Source of the DNA: a virus
IMG/VR virus record: IMGVR_UViG_3300031251_000002
Span: 1 to 64,000 of that record
Reading direction: 5' to 3' (one strand)
Length of the DNA: 64,000 nucleotides
Below, piece after piece: positions 1 to 36,795 of this stretch. The notes under the pieces were generated by a model. That model had not been told where the DNA came from. It did no database searches and saw nothing but the letters and a program-made list of their open reading frames with translations. The translations under genes were made by a program, and so were the position numbers. Within the stretch, counting starts at the first letter, position 1; the number at the start of each line of letters is the position of its first letter.

Positions 1-1
1 T

Positions 2-157
2 GTCTTCTCTCCGTGGTCAGCGTGTGATCGAGTAGCATTGAAAGACGGCAAGGTATTTTTCGTGGAATTCAAAAAGCCACAACAGGAGCTAAGCCCAATT
101 CAACAACGTGTTCATGATGCGCTCCCGGATAATTATCTAGTTCTGTATTCTGGATAG
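2..157 (+). CDS. 3' end of a VRR-NUC-like PD-(D/E)xK nuclease (partial)
   Basis: Frame 2 reads ...CDRVALKDGKVFFVEFKKPQQELSPIQQRVH...SG*, a D...EFK...LSxxQ pattern. The stop TAG (155-157) lies inside tRNA-Ser. Confidence 0.6.
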   Translation, partial: VFSPWSACDRVALKDGKVFFVEFKKPQQELSPIQQRVHDALPDNYLVLYSG

Positions 158-241
158 TTGGCCGAGTCTGGTTTATGGCACTTGTCCCGAAAACAAGCGT
201 GGGTAACACCACCGGGGGTTCAAATCCCTCACTATCCGCCA
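152..241 (+). tRNA. tRNA-Ser(CGA)
   Basis: Acceptor GGATAGT/ACTATCC-GCCA; anticodon arm CTTGT-CCCGAAA-ACAAG; long variable arm; T loop TTCAAAT; C33. Confidence 0.93.
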
Positions 242-243
242 AC

Positions 244-319
244 GCCTCTATAGCACAAATGGCGGTGCAGCGCCCCCGTAAGGCGAAGGCTGTCAGTTCA
301 AATCTGACTGGAGGCTCCA
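244..319 (+). tRNA. tRNA-Thr(CGT)
   Basis: GCCTCTA/TGGAGGC-TCCA; anticodon loop CCCGTAA (C33); T loop TTCAAAT. Confidence 0.9.
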
Positions 320-320
320 T

Positions 321-393
321 GCCGGTGACCTTTAGGAAAGGGCAGATGATTGGTATTCATCTGGAGTGATTTCGAGTATCACCATCGGCTCCA
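321..393 (+). tRNA. tRNA-Thr(GGT), atypical D arm
   Basis: GCCGGTG/CATCGGC-TCCA; GATGA-TTGGTAT-TCATC; T loop TTCGAGT. Confidence 0.82.
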
Positions 394-406
394 TTGAAAT
401 TTTTTA

Positions 407-512
407 GCCGGAAAGACTCCCGTTAAACTCGGGTGGCCCTCAGACTTTCATTAGGGAGGGGTATAGCTCAACGGTACTACAGACTTTAATTAGGGTAGTA
501 GAGCATCCGCCA
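407..512 (+). ncRNA. circularly permuted tRNA-like RNA (YrlA/Y-RNA-like architecture)
   Basis: Order is GCCGGA, T arm (CCCG-TTAAACT-CGGG), closed acceptor helix (TGGCCCTC/GAGGGGTA), D arm (TA-GCTC...GAGC), TCCGC. It has two loops AGACTTT(C/A)ATTAGG. Confidence 0.6.
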
Positions 513-573
513 ATTTGGAATAGGCAGACCGGACGGCCTTAATAAAGGACTAAATCCCCATCCGGAACCAAGT

Positions 574-648
574 GGGCTTGTCGTTCAATTAGGAGGATTC
601 CGCACTTGCAATGCGGGGACGACGGGGCAGAGCCGTCCGGGTCCACCA
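574..648 (+). tRNA. tRNA-Ala(TGC)
   Basis: GGGCTTG/CGGGTCC-ACCA with G3:U70; CCGCA-CTTGCAA-TGCGG; non-canonical T loop GGCAGAG. Confidence 0.88.
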
Positions 649-650
649 AT

Positions 651-724
651 TCCCTCATGGTTCAAAAGTAGAACAGACGCCTGATAAGCGTCAGACTTCC
701 GTGCGATTCGGAATGAGGGAACCA
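651..724 (+). tRNA. tRNA-Ile(GAT)
   Basis: TCCCTCA/TGAGGGA-ACCA; GACGC-CTGATAA-GCGTC. Confidence 0.9.
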
Positions 725-739
725 CTTTGTTATATTTTT

Positions 740-808
740 CGTGTCCTGACGATTGGCCGGAAGGTCGAAACGCGGGGGTGCCTCGAAACCGAGGCCCGCG
801 TAGACACG
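740..808 (+). ncRNA. type I hammerhead ribozyme
   Basis: Stem I CGTGTC/GACACG; core CTGACGA (746-752); stem II GGCC-GGAA-GGTC; GAAAC (767-771); stem III ACGCGGG/CCCGCGT; cleavage triplet GTA (800-802). Confidence 0.8.
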
Positions 809-811
809 TAC

Positions 812-886
812 GAGACTATGGTCAAGCGGAACTGACGCCTCGCTGTCTACGAGGAAGCCGGGGTTCAACTCCCCGTAGTCTCGCCA
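812..886 (+). tRNA. tRNA-Asp(GTC)
   Basis: GAGACTA/TAGTCTC-GCCA; CCTCG-CTGTCTA-CGAGG (U37). Confidence 0.9.
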
Positions 887-888
887 AT

Positions 889-966
889 AGGTACGTAGCC
901 CAATTTGGCAGAGGCCACAGGTCGAGGGCCTGTGTAGTGTGGGTTCGATGCCCGCCGTACCTACCA
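889..966 (+). tRNA. tRNA-Leu(GAG), short variable loop
   Basis: AGGTACG/CGTACCT-ACCA; ACAGG-TCGAGGG-CCTGT (C33). Confidence 0.82.
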
Positions 967-977
967 TTTCAAATAAC

Positions 978-1053
978 GCCTAGGTAGGCTAACGGCAAAG
1001 CCGCTAAGCTCAGAACTTAGTGATTGGAAGTTCAAATCTTCTCCTAGGCACCA
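978..1053 (+). tRNA. tRNA-Leu(CAG), short variable loop
   Basis: GCCTAGG/CCTAGGC-ACCA; CTAAG-CTCAGAA-CTTAG. Confidence 0.9.
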
Positions 1054-1059
1054 ACTTTT

Positions 1060-1133
1060 GGCCCGTTAGTCTAGTGGCAGAACGCTGGTCTCTCTAACCG
1101 GAAGCGCGAGTCCGATTCTCGCACGGGCTACCA
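1060..1133 (+). tRNA. tRNA-Glu(CTC)
   Basis: GGCCCGT/ACGGGCT-ACCA; CTGGT-CTCTCTA-ACCGG (U37). Confidence 0.87.
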
Positions 1134-1142
1134 AGTCTTTAT

Positions 1143-1217
1143 GGGCTGTTCGTCTATCGGGAAGGATAGCGCCCTTTCAAGGCGTTGAGGTGGGTTCAAC
1201 TCCCACACAGCCTACCA
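1143..1217 (+). tRNA. tRNA-Glu(TTC)
   Basis: GGGCTGT/ACAGCCT-ACCA; GCGCC-CTTTCAA-GGCGT. Confidence 0.93.
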
Positions 1218-1228
1218 ATTTTTGCGAT

Positions 1229-1304
1229 GGTGGCTATGGCCGAGCGGCTGAGGCGGCGGACTGTGAATCCGTTTAGACGAGTTCAACTCTCGTTAGTCAC
1301 CCCA
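1229..1304 (+). tRNA. tRNA-His(GTG)
   Basis: G-1:C73 acceptor GGTGGCTA/TAGTCACC-CCA; GCGGA-CTGTGAA-TCCGT. Confidence 0.93.
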
Positions 1305-1323
1305 ACTTTCTAACTGGCCCGGA

Positions 1324-1387
1324 GTAGGGCGTTTCCCATGATGGGAGTCATGGGATAGCTGCTCCCACAGCGATAAGCGCCCTGCCA
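1324..1387 (+). ncRNA. unknown three-way-junction RNA with kissing loops, ending in CCA
   Basis: Closing helix GTAGGGCGTTT/AAGCGCCCTGC; hairpins CCCATGA-TGGGAG-TCATGGG and GCTG-CTCCCA-CAGC, whose loops are perfectly complementary. Confidence 0.6.
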
Positions 1388-1429
1388 CCGGCATTCGGTG
1401 TTATAGTGGTAACCGAAGGACATTTACCT

Positions 1430-1618
1430 ATGGAGATCAAGGTCGAACAGGGCATCATCGGGGTTGTGAAGACTGAGGCAGAGAATGCAGCGACTGAGGC
1501 GGCGTGGCGGGAATGGTATCGAGCCAACTGCCGCGACTGCGGTAGTTCGGTAGGTTTGGTTCAATACGATACGTCATACGCTCTCTGTGACCGCTGTCGA
1601 GCGAAGGCAAAGAGATAG
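1430..1618 (+). CDS. small Zn-ribbon protein
   Basis: AAGGA RBS; CRDC...CDRC. Confidence 0.65.
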   Translation: MEIKVEQGIIGVVKTEAENAATEAAWREWYRANCRDCGSSVGLVQYDTSYALCDRCRAKAKR

Positions 1619-1622
1619 GATC

Positions 1623-1657
1623 AAAAAAATAGGGGGGCTGTGAAAGCCCCCCGTTTT
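1623..1657. terminator. bidirectional intrinsic terminator
   Basis: A-tract, GGGGGGCT-GTGAA-AGCCCCCC hairpin, then T-tract, between convergent ORFs. Confidence 0.8.
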
Positions 1658-1659
1658 CC

Positions 1660-1857
1660 TCAAGCGCGGATACCGCGCTCTCTTCCCAACCCGTTGCCCC
1701 GCGAGCGATGCAGCTTTACGACCCGACCTGCCGGATGATAGCGAAGGCTGTTCAACTCATGCCGCGTCTCATCGAGACGGTTGATGAGGGCGGCGATACG
1801 CCGCGCATCCTTCAGATCCATCGCCGAGTCTGCTCCGTCCACCTTGACGTTACCCAT
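1660..1857 (-). CDS. hypothetical protein (the only convincing minus-strand gene)
   Basis: Minus-strand AAAGGAGG RBS upstream of the ATG; ends at the bidirectional terminator. Confidence 0.6.
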   Translation of the reverse strand: MGNVKVDGADSAMDLKDARRIAALINRLDETRHELNSLRYHPAGRVVKLHRSRGNGLGRERGIRA

Positions 1858-2124
1858 TGGTATGGGCCTCCTTTAAGCCCATGTGCATTATCAAAAATGG
1901 AAGCGTCAATTTCTAATCGTTTGTTTGTCTGGAACTGAGAGGTTAAAACGATGAAAGGCCATGCACGGATCCCCTCCCGAAGAAGACGGAGAAGGCGGTT
2001 CCGCACAAGAAGAAGGCGAAGCGGCAGAAGGCTGAGGAGCGAGATGTGGCTTTGGAACACGGTCGGTACGATGACTACCTGATCGACATGGATTCAGAGA
2101 ACAGGAACTTTTGAGGAGGCTGTA

Positions 2125-2508
2125 ATGGGTGTGGAGTTCAACGGGAAGTATTGCTACGGGTCGGACAAGACGTATCTCGGGTTGGAGCTTTTGGACGAAC
2201 TGGAGTTCTCGGATCGGTCGTACTGCTTCGATACTCTCGTCGTCTGGCGCGATACCGAGGGCCGGGTTTTCGCAGCGCGGGATTCAGGTTGCTCCTGCCC
2301 GTCGCCGTTTGAGAACTACAACGACCTGTCCTCCTTCACCCGGATCTTCTCGGTAGCCGACTTGGAGGAGTTCTTCCATACCTATGACGGGAACAACTAT
2401 CCGACCGTGGAAGACAAGGCAGCGTTCAAGGCAACGGTTCAGTCCGCGCTGGACGCCCTGAAGGGGCCGGATTCGTTCAAGCCTGTGCCGATGGGTTGTC
2501 GGCAATGA
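2125..2508 (+). CDS. conserved phage hypothetical protein
   Basis: GAGGAGG RBS; DSGCSCPSPFE motif typical of a widespread phage family. Confidence 0.8.
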   Translation: MGVEFNGKYCYGSDKTYLGLELLDELEFSDRSYCFDTLVVWRDTEGRVFAARDSGCSCPSPFENYNDLSSFTRIFSVADLEEFFHTYDGNNYPTVEDKAAFKATVQSALDALKGPDSFKPVPMGCRQ

Positions 2509-2831
2509 AGTGCAAGAATTGCAACGACGAAGGCTCTCTCCATATACCGCTTGCGTTCCGCGAAATGGATGCCCCTAACAGGGGCAACTGTCCGGTCTGT
2601 TGTCGTCGCTTTCGATTACATCGCCAACCGGTGTCGTCCAGTCCTGATGGCGTCTGGCAGGTATGCTACTGGCTTGGTATCTACCAGAATCGTGCGTGTG
2701 AGTTTGGAGAACACATGGAGGTCATCTCAACCGAGATCCACGATCCGCTGGTTGATCAGATGAAGAAGGTTAAAGCAGCCGTCGCGGGACTTCACTATGG
2801 AGACCTGAGGCGGATTTTCGAGATCCCGTAA
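2505..2831 (+). CDS. Zn-finger hypothetical protein
   Basis: ATGA overlap with the upstream gene; CxxC pairs. Confidence 0.65.
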   Translation: MKCKNCNDEGSLHIPLAFREMDAPNRGNCPVCCRRFRLHRQPVSSSPDGVWQVCYWLGIYQNRACEFGEHMEVISTEIHDPLVDQMKKVKAAVAGLHYGDLRRIFEIP

Positions 2832-2854
2832 ATTCCAGTGAAGTATCCGTTTTT

Positions 2855-2932
2855 TGGCAGGAAGTTGGCGGGGTGCCGACGCCTGACTGTTAATCAGGAT
2901 AAAGGCAGGTTCGACTCCTGCCCTGCCAGCCA
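2855..2932 (+). tRNA. tRNA-Asn(GTT) with an extended 6-bp D stem
   Basis: TGGCAGG/CCTGCCA-GCCA; CCTGA-CTGTTAA-TCAGG; D arm GTTGGC/GCCGAC. Confidence 0.85.
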
Positions 2933-2934
2933 AT

Positions 2935-3010
2935 TCCAGTCAAGCTGAAGTGGGACAGCATCCGCCTGTTAAGCGGAGGGGTGTGGGTTCGATGCCCACG
3001 ACTGGAGCCA
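2935..3010 (+). tRNA. tRNA-Asn(GTT)
   Basis: TCCAGTC/GACTGGA-GCCA; TCCGC-CTGTTAA-GCGGA. Confidence 0.9.
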
Positions 3011-3011
3011 G

Positions 3012-3085
3012 AGCCCGCGAGTAGGAAAGTAGCACTCCGTTCTTACAAATCGGAAAACACGGGGCAGTACCGTGGCGGGCTACCA
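3012..3085 (+). tRNA. tRNA-Val(TAC), divergent
   Basis: AGCCCGC/GCGGGCT-ACCA; loop CTTACAA; T loop GGCAGTA. Confidence 0.78.
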
Positions 3086-3140
3086 CTTAAATCCGAGGCG
3101 ATTGCCTCTTTTCCGTGGCGATTGCCACAGATCGGTCGCT

Positions 3141-3215
3141 TGTCCCGTAGCTCAACGGCCAGAGCGGTCTCCTTATAAGAGACGGACGAAGGTTCAACTC
3201 CTTCCGGGACAACCA
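3141..3215 (+). tRNA. tRNA-Ile(TAT)
   Basis: TGTCCCG/CGGGACA-ACCA; GTCTC-CTTATAA-GAGAC. Confidence 0.9.
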
Positions 3216-3227
3216 GTAAGGGTAGGT

Positions 3228-3800
3228 ATGAAGAAGATTCCGAGTCTGTTTGAAAGAGACTGGAACGGCGACCGTTCCCGAGTTCTCAACAAGGTAACTC
3301 CCGGCTGCGAGTGGGTCATGGAGGGCCACGGCGTCCCGACCCGGAAGTGGGATGGCACCTGCTGCAAGGTCGAGGCTGGCCTCCTGCACAAGCGCTACGA
3401 CGCCAAGCAGGGCAAGACGCCCCCGGAGGGCTTCGTACCGGCACAGGAGCCTGATCCGATTACTGGCCACTGGCCGGGTTGGCTTCCGGTCCGGGATGTT
3501 CCAGAAGATCGCTGGTTCCGCGAGGCGTGGAACAGCCTCAAATCTGGAACACTCAAGGACGGCACCTACGAACTTGTCGGACCGAAGATCAACGGCAACC
3601 CAGAGGGCTACGACCAGCACACGCTGATCCTGCACGGCTGGCAACCGTTCTACCGGTTCCCGACCCCGCCGACCTTTGAGACGGTACGAGACTTCCTAGA
3701 GGCGAATGTAATCGAGGGCATCGTTTGGCACAATCTCGATGGTAGAATGGCCAAGGCCAAGAGGATTGACTTCGGTTTTCCGTGGGGGAGCAGGAAGTGA
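3228..3800 (+). CDS. ATP-dependent RNA ligase, DUF5565 / RLIG1 (C12orf29)-like
   Basis: Motif I TRKWDGTCC, then GHWPGWLPV, TYELVGPKINGNP, EGIVWH and GFPW, in the same order as in the RLIG1 family. Confidence 0.82.
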   Translation: MKKIPSLFERDWNGDRSRVLNKVTPGCEWVMEGHGVPTRKWDGTCCKVEAGLLHKRYDAKQGKTPPEGFVPAQEPDPITGHWPGWLPVRDVPEDRWFREAWNSLKSGTLKDGTYELVGPKINGNPEGYDQHTLILHGWQPFYRFPTPPTFETVRDFLEANVIEGIVWHNLDGRMAKAKRIDFGFPWGSRK

Positions 3801-4027
3801 AGAAGATCATCCATGTTAATCAAGCTGTGATCGTACGGAATCGCCGCCACTGCACGAACGATCCGCCGCTGATCGTGCGAACTTACAAGGGTTCGACACC
3901 GGCCCAGCAGGTTGACATCAACGGGCCGTCACGGCTGATTAACAGCCCGCACAAGCCGCTTAGCTGCGGAGCGCGGGTCTGGATAGAGACGACTGCGGAA
4001 GTAGTCGCGGACGGAAAAGTAATATGA
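3797..4027 (+). CDS. conserved phage hypothetical protein
   Basis: IIHVNQ...KPLSCGARVWIET family; GTGA overlap. Confidence 0.75.
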   Translation: MKKIIHVNQAVIVRNRRHCTNDPPLIVRTYKGSTPAQQVDINGPSRLINSPHKPLSCGARVWIETTAEVVADGKVI

Positions 4028-4269
4028 CCAAAGAAGAGTTGATCAAGCTGGAAGCCGTACTCGTCGCATGCGAGTTCGCGCAGGATCGTCAGGACGGGTG
4101 TCCAACTTGTGGTTACGATACGACGGAGATTTGCCCGCTTTGCTCTGCCGAAAAGGCCAGCGGAAAGAAGGGCAACCGCCATAATGACTGTGCGCTTTGG
4201 GAGAGCTTGCAAGCAGTTCGCAAGCAGCTTACCGGCGCTCACTGTTCGGAATGCAATTCATTTAGTTAG
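4024..4269 (+). CDS. Cys-rich hypothetical protein
   Basis: ATGA overlap; CPTC/CPLC...H..DC. Confidence 0.65.
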   Translation: MTKEELIKLEAVLVACEFAQDRQDGCPTCGYDTTEICPLCSAEKASGKKGNRHNDCALWESLQAVRKQLTGAHCSECNSFS

Positions 4270-4343
4270 ACCCTGTAGTTCAATGGACAGAATAAGAGCC
4301 TACGAAGCTTTTGATGCGTGTTCGACTCACGCCGGGGTCACCA
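4269..4343 (+). tRNA. tRNA-Arg(ACG)
   Basis: GACCCTG/CGGGGTC-ACCA; AGAGC-CTACGAA-GCTTT. Confidence 0.92.
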
Positions 4344-4349
4344 AATTTT

Positions 4350-4691
4350 ATGGGTAAGAAAGAGGATCAAGCTCGCTGGTATGCGTCTCATCGGGTGGCG
4401 CAGAAGGCGCGTGTTAAGCGCAATCGAACGCTTCGTGAGATGGGGCGGATAAGACGTTTGTCTGACTATCTCATTGAACAAGGATGTAAGGATTGTGGCG
4501 AACGAGATCCGGTTGTTCTGGAGTTTGATCATCTGCGAGATAAGACTGATTCGGTCAGCAAGCTCTTTCAGAGTGGTTGGTCTTGGGAACGCCTCATGAC
4601 TGAAATAGCAAAATGTGAAGTTGTCTGTCGAAACTGCCACACTCGACGGACCGCAAAACGCAACGGGTGGCGAAAAGCAGCGGGTCGGTAA
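4350..4691 (+). CDS. HNH endonuclease
   Basis: CKDCG...LEFDH...EIAKCEVVCRNCH; the stop lies inside tRNA-Lys. Confidence 0.9.
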   Translation: MGKKEDQARWYASHRVAQKARVKRNRTLREMGRIRRLSDYLIEQGCKDCGERDPVVLEFDHLRDKTDSVSKLFQSGWSWERLMTEIAKCEVVCRNCHTRRTAKRNGWRKAAGR

Positions 4692-4758
4692 CTCAAGTGG
4701 AACAGAGTCCTCCCTCTTAAGGAGCGAGATGGCGGTTCAAATCCGCCCCGGCCCACCA
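4682..4758 (+). tRNA. tRNA-Lys(CTT)
   Basis: GGGTCGG/CCGGCCC-ACCA; loop CTCTTAA. Confidence 0.92.
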
Positions 4759-4759
4759 T

Positions 4760-4850
4760 GATCTTGTGCGGTAATAGACAACCTACCTTCCTCCTAAGAA
4801 GGGAATCCGAGTGCAACTCTATTCGGGTTCAAATCCCGATGGACTCACCA
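4760..4850 (+). pseudogene. chimeric tRNA remnant (5' part of tRNA-Arg(CCT) fused to the 3' end of another tRNA)
   Basis: Anticodon arm CCTTC-CTCCTAA-GAAGG, a truncated T arm CCGAG-TGCAACT-CT, then a second T arm TCGGG-TTCAAAT-CCCGA and TGGACTC-ACCA, which does not pair with the 5' end. Confidence 0.6.
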
Positions 4851-4865
4851 TGATATAATCGTTCG

Positions 4866-5267
4866 ATGCCCTACTTAGACCCGAAACGTCAAAGCCAACA
4901 CCAGTACGCTCGCATGAAAAAGCGACGAGACGAGTGGTTTGACAAGAACGGTCCCTGTGTTCGATGCAAGAGTTGGAAACAGCTTGAGCTTGACCACCGC
5001 GACCCGACGACCAAGGTTTCTCATGCCATCTGGTCATGGTCTGACGCCCGTAGAGCAGTTGAACTAGCAAAGTGCCAAGCTCTTTGTCATCCCTGCCATC
5101 TAACGAAGAGCATTGAAGAGTTCAAGGCCGCTAGACCGCGAAAGCACGGAGCCGCATCTTATAATAAAGGATGCCGTTGCGCGAGTTGTCGAGCCGCTAA
5201 AAATGCACAGAAAAAGAGATGGCGAGAACGACTCCATGGCCTAACAGACAAGGCAGCACTCTCCTAA
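4866..5267 (+). CDS. HNH endonuclease
   Basis: CVRC...LELDH...ELAKCQALCHPCH plus HG...Y..GCRC..C; the stop TAA lies in the anticodon loop of tRNA-Arg(CCT). Confidence 0.9.
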   Translation: MPYLDPKRQSQHQYARMKKRRDEWFDKNGPCVRCKSWKQLELDHRDPTTKVSHAIWSWSDARRAVELAKCQALCHPCHLTKSIEEFKAARPRKHGAASYNKGCRCASCRAAKNAQKKRWRERLHGLTDKAALS

Positions 5268-5304
5268 AGTGTTCATGCGTGTGCAACTCACGCTGGAGTC
5301 ACCA
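5230..5304 (+). tRNA. tRNA-Arg(CCT)
   Basis: GACTCCA/TGGAGTC-ACCA; GCACT-CTCCTAA-AGTGT. Confidence 0.9.
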
Positions 5305-5316
5305 TATTTAATCAAT

Positions 5317-5391
5317 GCGACTGTAGTTCAGGAGTAGAATGTCTCGTTGCCAACGAGAAGGTCGAGGGTGCGAAGCCCTCCAGTCGCTCCA
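5317..5391 (+). tRNA. tRNA-Gly(GCC)
   Basis: GCGACTG/CAGTCGC-TCCA; TCTCG-TTGCCAA-CGAGA. Confidence 0.92.
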
Positions 5392-5397
5392 AGTTTC

Positions 5398-5473
5398 GCG
5401 GGTGTAGTGTTCAATGGCAGCACGGGACGCTTCCAACGTTCAAGTCGGGGTTCAAATCCCCTCACCCGCTCCA
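5398..5473 (+). tRNA. tRNA-Gly(TCC)
   Basis: GCGGGTG/CACCCGC-TCCA; loop CTTCCAA. Confidence 0.92.
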
Positions 5474-5491
5474 CTTTTTCTGGTAAACTAG

Positions 5492-5530
5492 TGTGATCCC
5501 GTCTGCGCGAACTGTCATCGTGAACGTACA
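5492..5530 (+). pseudogene. C-terminal remnant of an HNH endonuclease
   Basis: Translates to CDPVCANCHRERT, matching KCEVVCRNCHTRRT of the HNH at 4350; it is preceded by an in-frame stop. Confidence 0.7.
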
Positions 5531-5531
5531 T

Positions 5532-5607
5532 TCAGGAGTGGTGTAAATGGCAACATCTCTGGCTCTGAACCAGAAGACTCTACGTTCGACCCGTAGCTCC
5601 TGAACCA
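5532..5607 (+). tRNA. tRNA-Gln(CTG)
   Basis: TCAGGAG/CTCCTGA-ACCA; TCTGG-CTCTGAA-CCAGA. Confidence 0.92.
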
Positions 5608-5625
5608 ATTTTTTCTTGAGGGTCT

Positions 5626-5778
5626 ATGGCCAACTACAAGAAGCGTAAAGCCAAGCAGAGTTCCCGCCGATGCGGGATGTGCAAGTCCTACAAGAAGGAC
5701 GGCAACAAGGCCGAATCCAAGGCCGAGAAGCTGAACCGGAAGATTGTCAAAGCACTCAGGGAGTACCTGAAGCCGTAA
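5626..5778 (+). CDS. small basic protein (MANYKKRKAK...CGMCK...)
   Basis: GAGG RBS; 50 codons, below the ORF-track cutoff. Confidence 0.65.
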   Translation: MANYKKRKAKQSSRRCGMCKSYKKDGNKAESKAEKLNRKIVKALREYLKP

Positions 5779-5780
5779 CC

Positions 5781-6170
5781 ATGCATACTCCTGAAACGCG
5801 CAAACGGGCATACGCAAAAGTTCGTCAACGTCGTGAGGACTGGCTTGAAAAGAACGGGCCATGCAAGAAGTGCGGCAGCATGATCCGTCTTGAGGTCGAT
5901 CATATCAACCCAACCACAAAAGTTTCGCATACGGTTTGGTCTTGGCGAGAGCCACGGCGCTTAGCTGAGCTAAAGAAATGTCAAGTTCTCTGCCACGACT
6001 GCCATCTTGAAAAAACTCGCTTGTCGCTTGTCAAACCTTTGGTTCATGGCACTCTAACTGGTTACAAGACATGTCGCTGTTCGCTCTGCTTGGCCGCAAA
6101 CAGGGCCTATAAGCTAATCTACAATCGTACCTATCGTTCAATGAAAAGGACATGCCCCTCCGAAGGGTAA
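5781..6170 (+). CDS. HNH endonuclease
   Basis: CKKCG...LEVDH...ELKKCQVLCHDCH; paralog of 4866-5267; runs 44 nt into tRNA-Arg(CCG). Confidence 0.9.
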   Translation: MHTPETRKRAYAKVRQRREDWLEKNGPCKKCGSMIRLEVDHINPTTKVSHTVWSWREPRRLAELKKCQVLCHDCHLEKTRLSLVKPLVHGTLTGYKTCRCSLCLAANRAYKLIYNRTYRSMKRTCPSEG

Positions 6171-6201
6171 AATCTCGGTTTGACTCCGAGTAGGTACACC
6201 A
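6127..6201 (+). tRNA. tRNA-Arg(CCG)
   Basis: GTACCTA/TAGGTAC-ACCA; TGCCC-CTCCGAA-GGGTA. Confidence 0.87.
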
Positions 6202-6210
6202 AGCAACATT

Positions 6211-6233
6211 GCCCGCCGAAAGGCGGGCTTTTT
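6211..6233 (+). terminator. intrinsic terminator closing the tRNA array
   Basis: GCCCGCC-GAAA-GGCGGGC-TTTTT. Confidence 0.88.
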
Positions 6234-6250
6234 CATGTTAGGATTACCTG

Positions 6251-6532
6251 ATGAACGAATTGACTGAACTGGCGAAGATGGGCGCGGTCAAGGAGAAGTC
6301 TCAAGCAATCGGTGAGTTCATCGAGTGGTTACGGGACACAAAGAGCGTCGTCTTTGCCGAGTGGGTAGATGAAATCTGCGAGTCGAACTGTCGTCACAAG
6401 CATGAGGCGCGGCTGGTGTCAGCGTACGTCGATATCGAAAGCTGGCTGGCTCAATTTTTTGACATTGATCTGGATAAGGTCGAGAAAGAAAAGCGAGCGA
6501 TCCTGAAGGCCCTGCGGGAGAAGACAAAATGA
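6251..6532 (+). CDS. conserved phage hypothetical protein
   Basis: SQAIGEFIEWL...FDIDLDKVEKEKRAIL. Confidence 0.75.
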   Translation: MNELTELAKMGAVKEKSQAIGEFIEWLRDTKSVVFAEWVDEICESNCRHKHEARLVSAYVDIESWLAQFFDIDLDKVEKEKRAILKALREKTK

Positions 6533-35610: not shown

Positions 35611-36795
35611 ATGCCGATTAAGCGTACGCTACAGTCGCGGGTGCCAGTCAAGATTTGGACTGAGGATGTGGCAAGCAACGCCATGGATCAGTTGAAGAAC
35701 ACGGCATCTCTGCCCTTCGTCTACCACCACGTAGCGGCCATGCCGGATGTCCACCTTGGCATTGGTGCTACGGTTGGCAGCGTCGTGGCTACGGTGGGTG
35801 CGGTAATGCCCGCCAGCGTTGGTGTGGATATCGGCTGCGGCATGATGTGGATCGAGACCGGATTGGACATCGGTGTTCTCGACGGCAAGCTGCCTGAGCT
35901 TCGCCACAGCATCGAGCGCGGCGTCCCGGTGGGCTTCAACTCCCACAAGGAGCCGAAGATCGCTGCCCAGATTTTCGGGAAGAATTTTGGTCGTCCGATT
36001 GAGGGGGCTGACGACGATGAGCTTATGGGAAAGAGCCTTTGTCAACTGGGTAGCTTGGGCGGCGGGAATCACTTCATCGAGGTGTGCGTCAATCTCGACA
36101 CGAACAAACTCTCAGTCATGCTCCACAGCGGATCACGCAATGTGGGAAAGACTGTGGCCGAACGGTACATCAACAAGGCCAAGCTCCACCACCTCATTAA
36201 ACTGCCCGACCCTGAACTGGCGTACTTTGCCGCCGGGACTGACGAGTTTGCTAACTATGTGAATGACGTTCAGTGGTGTCAGATGTACGCCATGCTGAAC
36301 CGGCAGATCATGATGGACGAGGTGCTGAAGGATCTCGCCCACTTGCTGGGGGTGGATCGGTACAACGCCCACGCGAGTCTGGGTGTTACTCAGAGCGTCA
36401 ACTGCCACCACAACTACATCGCTGAAGAGATTCATTTTGGACAGAAGGTTTTCGTAACTCGTAAGGGAGCGATCAATGCCGAGAAGGGAACGTGGGGAAT
36501 CATTCCGGGAAGTATGGGCACCGGTAGCTTCATCGTTAAGGGCCTTGGGAATCCGGAAAGCTTTAACTCTGCTCCCCACGGTGCTGGTCGTCGTATGTCT
36601 CGCGGTGAGGCAAAGCGGACGTTCACCGTCGCAGACCTTGAAGCTCAGACGAGTGGCGTAGAGTGTCGTAAGGATGCTGATGTTCTCGATGAGGCCCCGG
36701 CAGCATACAAGGATATCGGTGAGGTAATCACTAACTCGTCTGACTTGGTGACCGTCGAGGCACGGATCAAGCAGGTTCTTTGCGTCAAGGGGTAG
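35611..36795 (+). CDS. rtcB: RtcB family RNA ligase
   Basis: MPDVHLG, VGVDIGCG, GGGNHFIE, HSGSR, CHHNY, RKGA, IPGSMG, SAPHGAGR, DEAPAAYK. Confidence 0.97.
   Translation: MPIKRTLQSRVPVKIWTEDVASNAMDQLKNTASLPFVYHHVAAMPDVHLGIGATVGSVVATVGAVMPASVGVDIGCGMMWIETGLDIGVLDGKLPELRHSIERGVPVGFNSHKEPKIAAQIFGKNFGRPIEGADDDELMGKSLCQLGSLGGGNHFIEVCVNLDTNKLSVMLHSGSRNVGKTVAERYINKAKLHHLIKLPDPELAYFAAGTDEFANYVNDVQWCQMYAMLNRQIMMDEVLKDLAHLLGVDRYNAHASLGVTQSVNCHHNYIAEEIHFGQKVFVTRKGAINAEKGTWGIIPGSMGTGSFIVKGLGNPESFNSAPHGAGRRMSRGEAKRTFTVADLEAQTSGVECRKDADVLDEAPAAYKDIGEVITNSSDLVTVEARIKQVLCVKG

Follow-up and report, generated by a model that had tools for sequence, protein, structure and literature searches.

A type I hammerhead ribozyme candidate with two extra uridines in its catalytic core fills a spacer of a phage tRNA array

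The stretch of DNA analysed here (the window, 64,000 nucleotides) opens an IMG/VR virus record of 166,450 bases, judged complete by CheckV, and it comes from a phage encoding a T4-type portal protein with less than 30% identity to every cultured-phage portal. ARAGORN predicts 20 tRNAs in the window, all on the plus strand and between positions 152 and 6201. L151, an ENA contig from this same phage with one mismatch (the window's first base) over the 10,997 bases compared, adds six tRNAs just upstream of the window's array, giving a total of 26–27 on one strand throughout. Within the block from 152 to 1304 the spacers measure mostly 1–12 nt; the spacer between tRNA-Ile and tRNA-Asp (725–811) measures 87 nt, and the element described here exactly fills this unusually long gap in an otherwise tight array. 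The next terminator-like site downstream of the element lies at 1632–1652. The features concerned are the following:

651–724, plus strand: tRNA-Ile(GAU) with encoded CCA, the upstream neighbour (ARAGORN; Rfam tRNA model, 58.2 bits)
725–739, plus strand: AU-rich linker CUUUGUUAUAUUUUU between tRNA-Ile and stem I, unpaired in all folds
740–745, plus strand: 5′ strand of stem I, CGUGUC, forming six Watson–Crick pairs with 803–808
746–752, plus strand: core residues C3 U4 G5 A6 C7 G8 A9 (CUGACGA), invariant columns of covariance model R1
753–754, plus strand: UU insertion between A9 and G10.1, an insert in model R1
755–766, plus strand: stem II, GGCC (755–758) with GGUC (763–766), 4 bp, closed by the GNRA-type loop GGAA
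767–769, plus strand: core residues G12 A13 A14 (GAA), invariant model columns
770–801, plus strand: stem III, about 12 bp, with a 4-nt G-rich bulge and the loop AAAC (from folds and descriptor)
802, plus strand: H17, an A; predicted scissile bond A802/G803 (triplet GUA), positioned by hammerhead rules
803–808, plus strand: 3′ strand of stem I, GACACG, pairing with 740–745
809–811, plus strand: UAC linker, in which U809 A810 are the class's conserved UA 3′ of stem I
812–886 (ARAGORN) or 812–883 (Rfam, 53.9 bits), plus strand: tRNA-Asp(GUC), the downstream neighbour
3228–3800, plus strand: RLIG1-type RNA ligase gene inside the tRNA array (Pfam PF17720, E = 2.2e-10)
35611–36795, plus strand: RtcB RNA ligase of the phage (Pfam PF01139, E = 8.6e-119)

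Elsewhere in the array, positions 394–573 form a 180-nt spacer with tRNA-like arms in unusual order and no Rfam family match, and 574–645, directly upstream of tRNA-Ile, scores 35 bits against the Rfam tRNA model with no ARAGORN call and could represent a degenerate or atypical tRNA. The array is also broken up by three small paralogous ORFs that carry Cys/His motifs (4311–4691, 4866–5267 and 5670–6170); the first has a weak HNH match, and all three may be homing-endonuclease-like mobile genes. Homologues of the RLIG1-type ligase (PF17720) are very widespread in phage and metagenome contigs, the best at about 60% identity, and together with RtcB this gene gives the phage two RNA ligases that differ in end chemistry. 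No other ribozyme family was found in the tRNA array by Rfam.

Between 740 and 808 the spacer reads as a complete type I hammerhead, as a preliminary description of this DNA had claimed: the stems, the core, the GAAA and the GUA triplet can all be taken directly from the sequence. Three helices meet with the 5′ and 3′ ends in stem I, the descriptor stems measure 6, 4 and at least 7 bp, and the features required of type I are present, namely the core strand, G12 A13 A14, the A15.1–U16.1 pair and a non-G residue at H17. A conserved pyrimidine, U739, lies immediately 5′ of stem I. Stem II is closed by G10.1–C11.1 (G755–C766), contains one G-U pair, and has the geometry of verified phage hammerheads (n = 81 among the matches listed). 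Stem III begins with A15.1–U16.1 (A770–U801) and C15.2–G16.2; A770–U801 and five pairs lead to the G-rich bulge, whose register is ambiguous (776–779 or 777–780), and then to a 6-bp hairpin with the AAAC loop. This stem had been called branched and bulged, of which the bulge is confirmed whereas the fold shows no branch. The GUA triplet is found in natural hammerheads (PMC1636495) and occurs in 9 of 100 members of the class to which we compare the element below. The predicted cut, which hammerhead rules place after A802 just as first proposed, would leave a 9-nt leader, GACACGUAC, ahead of tRNA-Asp. The MFE fold of 735–811 is a three-way junction (−33.5 kcal/mol, z = −2.66; RNAfold), and the junction stays a separate domain when 640–900 or 574–1060 is folded with the flanking tRNAs. 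The sole departure from the consensus core is the 2-nt insertion after A9, also noticed earlier: type I hammerheads have A9 contiguous with G10.1, and here U753 and U754 intervene.

A strict descriptor (core, insert of 0–2 nt, stems of at least 4/3/3) matched the element alone, whether run on the 64-kb window or on all 166 kb of the genome. Across 300 dinucleotide shuffles it gave 0.06 matches per window at minimal stems and none with at least 17 pairs, and 59 Mb of Markov sequence contained two matches with at least 17 pairs and no match whose stems reached 5/4/5. The chance rate is about 3e-8 per base (at least 17 pairs), or roughly 3e-6 for the 87-nt spacer, and the chance expectation for the element is negligible. 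Descriptor matches in seven other loci (L050, L051, L021, L094, L117, L118 and L126) were weak or lay in AT-rich coding sequence and were rejected, and the first pattern-scan match, in L002, was set aside as chance.

The element was then compared with hammerheads of other phages. A control pattern, CUGAYGA-G-NNN-GNRA-NNN-C-GAAAC, returned at least 90 matches in at least 80 loci of IMG/VR; among the matches listed, 81 of 90 satisfy the full descriptor and 61 of those 81 belong to type I and, with few exceptions, have 6 bp in stem I and 4 bp in stem II. The covariance model R1 was built from eight unrelated 51-nt phage hammerheads with two flanking bases on each side. It aligns to the window at 738–810 over all 55 positions (31.8 bits, E = 3.5e-7), accommodating as inserts both the UU and 19 nt in the loop of stem III; in the 166-kb genome the element is its sole match (E = 9e-7), and in 2.55 Mb of other phage loci it recovered only the hammerhead of L007 and the contig of the same phage, L151, with no false positives. 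The class itself is under strong structural selection: in an alignment fitted to the model, 98.8% of cells are paired and double-sided changes number 465, compared with about 60 in the slid controls. U739 on the 5′ side of the element and U809 A810 on the 3′ side form a flank signature, which corresponds to the commonest combination in the class (T before and TA after, 31 of 99) and is a possible tertiary-contact site. Given the 6-bp open stem I, the 4-bp stem II, the GNRA loop and the U and UA flanks that it shares with these ribozymes, the element very probably belongs to the common phage type I hammerhead class, in which stem III is variable. Its identity as a hammerhead is supported more strongly than by the evidence of the preliminary description, since the class covariance model matches it from end to end and the stem lengths and flank signature are those of the class.

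Phage and prophage type I hammerheads were described by Perreault et al. 2011 (PMC3088659; RF00163, CL00010), and the element has in common with them the core, the three helices, the open stem I, the GUH triplet, the phage origin and an intergenic site on the transcribed strand. It differs in carrying two extra U between A9 and G10.1, in lying inside a tRNA array whereas the others lie between protein genes, and in falling below Rfam detection. It is also present in a single copy in its genome, unlike the hammerheads of many multi-copy phages such as L274 and L321. In these two loci, about ten hammerheads each lie roughly 200–900 bases apart (L321:9152-13522 and L274:2231-9485), an arrangement likewise described by Perreault et al. 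2011 (PMC3088659); the intervals in L321 are mostly 300–500 and its copies are type II with one type III, and those of L274 are mostly type I.

The comparison with Rfam hammerhead models suggested in the preliminary description came back empty: Rfam 15 gave no hammerhead family at the gathering threshold, nor any at E ≤ 10, on 1 kb or even on 91 nt, and the element does not reach the curated thresholds of RF00163, RF00008 or clan CL00010. An RF00163 match at genome position 133744 lies in coding sequence, lacks the GAAA and was rejected as chance. Rfam silence says little here, since canonical phage hammerheads also score below its cut-offs. That of L007 reaches 30.7 bits against a cut-off of 48.5, with the wrong topology in the alignment, and those of L226 reach 26 against 34 and 24.5 against 48.5. 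There was likewise no HDV-family match for the element in Rfam at E ≤ 10, and unlike HDV-like or theta ribozymes it folds as a three-way junction, starts 15 nt after tRNA-Ile and would be cut at its far end.

These results bear on whether the element is a hammerhead at all. It might instead be a chance junction, a degenerate tRNA or another structured spacer, such as a protein-binding site, a reading that would accord with the missing Rfam hammerhead match and with the odd tRNA-like elements of the array (574–645 and 407–570). Against it stand the chance rate of about 3e-8 per base and the absence of any match with at least 17 pairs in the 300 shuffles, the class model's E of about 4e-7 with no false positives in 2.55 Mb, and a flank signature that fits the class. 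Rfam fails its own cut-off on the canonical hammerheads of L007 and L226, and its tRNA model has no match in 725–811, where the arm spacing is wrong for a tRNA. We consider this explanation very improbable and close to refuted.

The UU insertion sets the element apart from every hammerhead recovered in our scans. The A9/G10.1 junction that it interrupts belongs to the metal-binding region of the hammerhead core. In IMG/VR the pattern CUGAYGA-UU-G-N10-C-GAAAC gave 45 matches, none a hammerhead, and the pattern with UU and a GNRA loop gave 41 matches in 241 M metagenome records and 32 in 32 M genome contigs, again with no hammerhead in either set. A scan for any dinucleotide insert with a GNRA loop gave 23 matches, and the real hammerheads among them carry 0 or 1 extra base. 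Thus 2.9 M viral contigs, 241 M metagenome records and 32 M genome contigs yielded no hammerhead with a two-base insert in scans that covered a 4-bp stem II, required a GNRA loop in all but the first IMG/VR UU scan, and admitted inserts other than UU in the any-dinucleotide GNRA scan only. A register that takes both U into stem II was considered and rejected; it destroys G12–A13 and so is no hammerhead register. In the MFE fold, UU pairs with G12/A13 at a probability of 0.8–0.9 in the nearest-neighbour ensemble, and adopting the hammerhead-competent fold costs 1.5 kcal/mol relative to the MFE.

Smaller insertions at the identical core position are known from a viroid and from other phages. The CChMVd(+) hammerhead carries an extra A between A9 and G10.1 that causes a moderate drop in rate, and with U in place of this A it cleaves 3–4 times faster (PMC3705267, PMC1636495). 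Five phage hammerheads, spanning types I, II and III, carry a single U between A9 and G10.1 (L322:3189-3250 and 4406-4461; L324:976-1037; L328:11036-11093; L331:7451-7506), and comparison of L322 with L324 reveals a compensatory change from U-A to C-G in stem I. In every phage case the inserted base is U, which was also the base best tolerated in the viroid study (De la Pena and Flores 2001, as summarised in PMC3705267 and PMC1636495). CChMVd(+) and the single-U phage hammerheads have one extra nucleotide, whereas the element has two; activity was measured in the viroid case, and the phage single-U cases are known from sequence. The UU bulge is unlikely to be neutral and probably makes the reaction slower or conditional. 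Judged from its sequence, the element stands about an even chance of self-cleaving, an estimate held down by a two-base insert without precedent and by the pairing of UU with G12/A13, which favours the competing fold.

No homologue of the element came to light. Megablast of 1–6300 against phages and a search of IMG/VR with the portal protein returned no relatives, and blastn of 725–890 against phages returned tRNA-Asp-like pieces only. The RNA ligase, compared with 5.8 billion proteins, has 100% matches from the same phage only and a next best match at 62% identity, and 148 loci of IMG/VR in which DUF7574 and ligase neighbourhoods were inspected hold no homologous element. In the collections searched there are identical copies of this phage only and no homologous loci, and the element is a singleton known from one phage.

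Hammerheads of the same class do occur in the tRNA arrays of other phages, placed between two tRNA genes and on the tRNA strand, as the element is. Among the matches listed, 3 of 81 hammerheads lie in loci with tRNAs. In L226 (IMGVR_UViG_3300001605_000031), which has 12 tRNAs, a canonical type I hammerhead sits between tRNA-Gln and tRNA-His (1432–1508). Its stem I consists of the CCA end of tRNA-Gln paired with G-1 and the first five bases of tRNA-His, so that the predicted cut after C1502 would produce the tRNA-His 5′ end at G-1 with no need of RNase P; tRNA-His is followed by a second hammerhead (1632–1690). In L233 (IMGVR_UViG_3300028590_000016, 6031–6236) a type I hammerhead starts 7 nt past tRNA-Asp, and the 152 nt past its cut site fold at −74.6 kcal/mol (z = −6.0). 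There a 17-bp helix starting from the cut site surrounds, in permuted order, a T-arm, an acceptor-like hairpin capped by GAAA and a D-arm, an arrangement that looks like a permuted tRNA-like RNA with its ends set up for ligation; by this model the ends could be joined by a ligase such as RtcB. The cores in L226 and L233 are canonical, whereas that of the element has the UU insert, and the stem I of the element is separate from both tRNAs with a cut predicted 9 nt upstream, whereas the cut in L226 would make a mature 5′ end.

The nearest functional precedent is of a different fold. Theta ribozymes, which are minimal HDV-like ribozymes, lie beside phage tRNAs and have been proposed to process pre-tRNA without host RNases (Kienbeck et al. 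2024, PMC10879173), so the preliminary description was right to place HDV-like ribozymes at phage tRNA 3′ ends. They too are small self-cleaving ribozymes embedded beside tRNA genes of tailed phages; they directly abut the 3′ side of a tRNA, whose 3′ end their cleavage would generate, whereas the element lies 5′ of tRNA-Asp and would leave a 9-nt leader still needing RNase P. Natural hammerheads in phage tRNA arrays are not described in the literature searched, which has only theta ribozymes at tRNA 3′ ends, and the theta paper does not mention hammerheads (PMC10879173).

We suggest, with a probability of about 0.5, that the ribozyme cuts the tRNA precursor; such a subdivision of pre-tRNA is plausible and has parallels in the arrays of L226 and L233. 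The analysis shows the co-orientation of the element with the tRNAs, its fold class and the predicted cut site. The ribozyme would be transcribed within the polycistronic tRNA precursor, where the independent three-way junction would fold and cut itself co-transcriptionally after A802. The upstream product would end in tRNA-Ile and a 78-nt trailer that contains the whole ribozyme and carries a 2′,3′-cyclic phosphate end, and the downstream product would begin with a 5′-OH on the 9-nt leader and continue into tRNA-Asp-Leu-Leu-Glu-Glu-His. Host RNase P would then remove the leader from tRNA-Asp, and host endo- and exonucleases would trim the trailer through the AU-rich linker 725–739. This linker contains AU|AUU, which fits the RNase E consensus, although that consensus may not be the host's. 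No sigma-70 promoter was found in the AU-rich linker or the spacer, a pseudoknot between loop II (GGAA) and the flanks offered a weak and unconvincing UUUU option only, and no long-range helix of at least 8 nt joins the 5′ leader to downstream RNA within 1–2000. There is no evident need for the cut, since RNase P alone could make the 5′ end of tRNA-Asp.

The main rival to this proposal follows from its weak point, the UU insert. The element may be a recently disabled or strongly attenuated relic of an active class member, perhaps one acquired with a tRNA cassette, in which UU crippled catalysis and left an inert structured spacer. The two-base insertion is unique among the matches in three large collections and sits in the catalytic core, where it gives G12/A13 a competing pairing partner. 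With this one hammerhead in its genome, the phage has no general dependence on the class, and, as is established for tRNA maturation, RNase P makes the cut dispensable. On the other hand, the other core bases, all 22–23 pairs and the flank signature are intact, a state not to be expected had it decayed neutrally for long. Activity is compatible with one additional U here (PMC3705267), and such a U is kept under selection in other phage hammerheads, as seen between L322 and L324; bulged pyrimidines, moreover, can presumably be extruded from a helix junction in most cases. Weighing these points, we take loss of function to be a serious possibility, short of probable. The same insertion admits a functional interpretation: since U753 and U754 can sequester G12/A13, the UU-bulged core could be a tuned hammerhead, slow or conditional, that times the release of tRNA-Asp to tRNA-His and represents one case of an undescribed habit of wiring hammerheads into tRNA arrays among phages. 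We regard tuning of this kind as rather unlikely.

A further idea, raised in the preliminary description, is that the cleavage is reversible, with the phage RtcB resealing the two ends left by the ribozyme. Such a switch would adjust how much tRNA-Asp, and how much of the tRNAs behind it, becomes available. Hammerhead products bear 2′,3′-cyclic phosphate and 5′-OH ends, which are RtcB substrates. The corresponding end chemistry has been put to use in PMC8782182. The phage does encode RtcB (35611–36795), as had been supposed, and the cut site of L233, which opens a 17-bp helix joining the ends of a permuted tRNA-like RNA, may hint at ribozyme-plus-ligase processing. The supposed connection of the ligase to the ribozyme site, however, gained no support: no physical or comparative link was found, RtcB lies 35 kb from the site, and the cut ends would be held by the 6-bp stem I only, with no further helix joining them. 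Rejoining would merely undo the processing, and a phage RtcB is more simply understood as repairing tRNAs cut by host anticodon nucleases, a role that is established knowledge. Reversible cleavage through RtcB is pure speculation, and we hold it to be the least probable of the explanations considered here.

Returning to the proposed cutting of the tRNA precursor, the class to which the element is assigned is well known; what is new here is a two-base core insert without precedent in the scanned collections, together with the tRNA-array context. Members of this phage sub-class with a long stem III escape the hammerhead models of Rfam. If the element is active, the hammerhead core would tolerate more than is now known, namely two bases between A9 and G10.1; if inactive, the element would provide a dated snapshot of ribozyme loss. 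For the hammerheads of bacteria and phages, whose biological role is not yet settled (PMC6155905, PMC3088659), a place in a tRNA array offers a simple, testable function, the RNase-independent cutting of a tRNA precursor.
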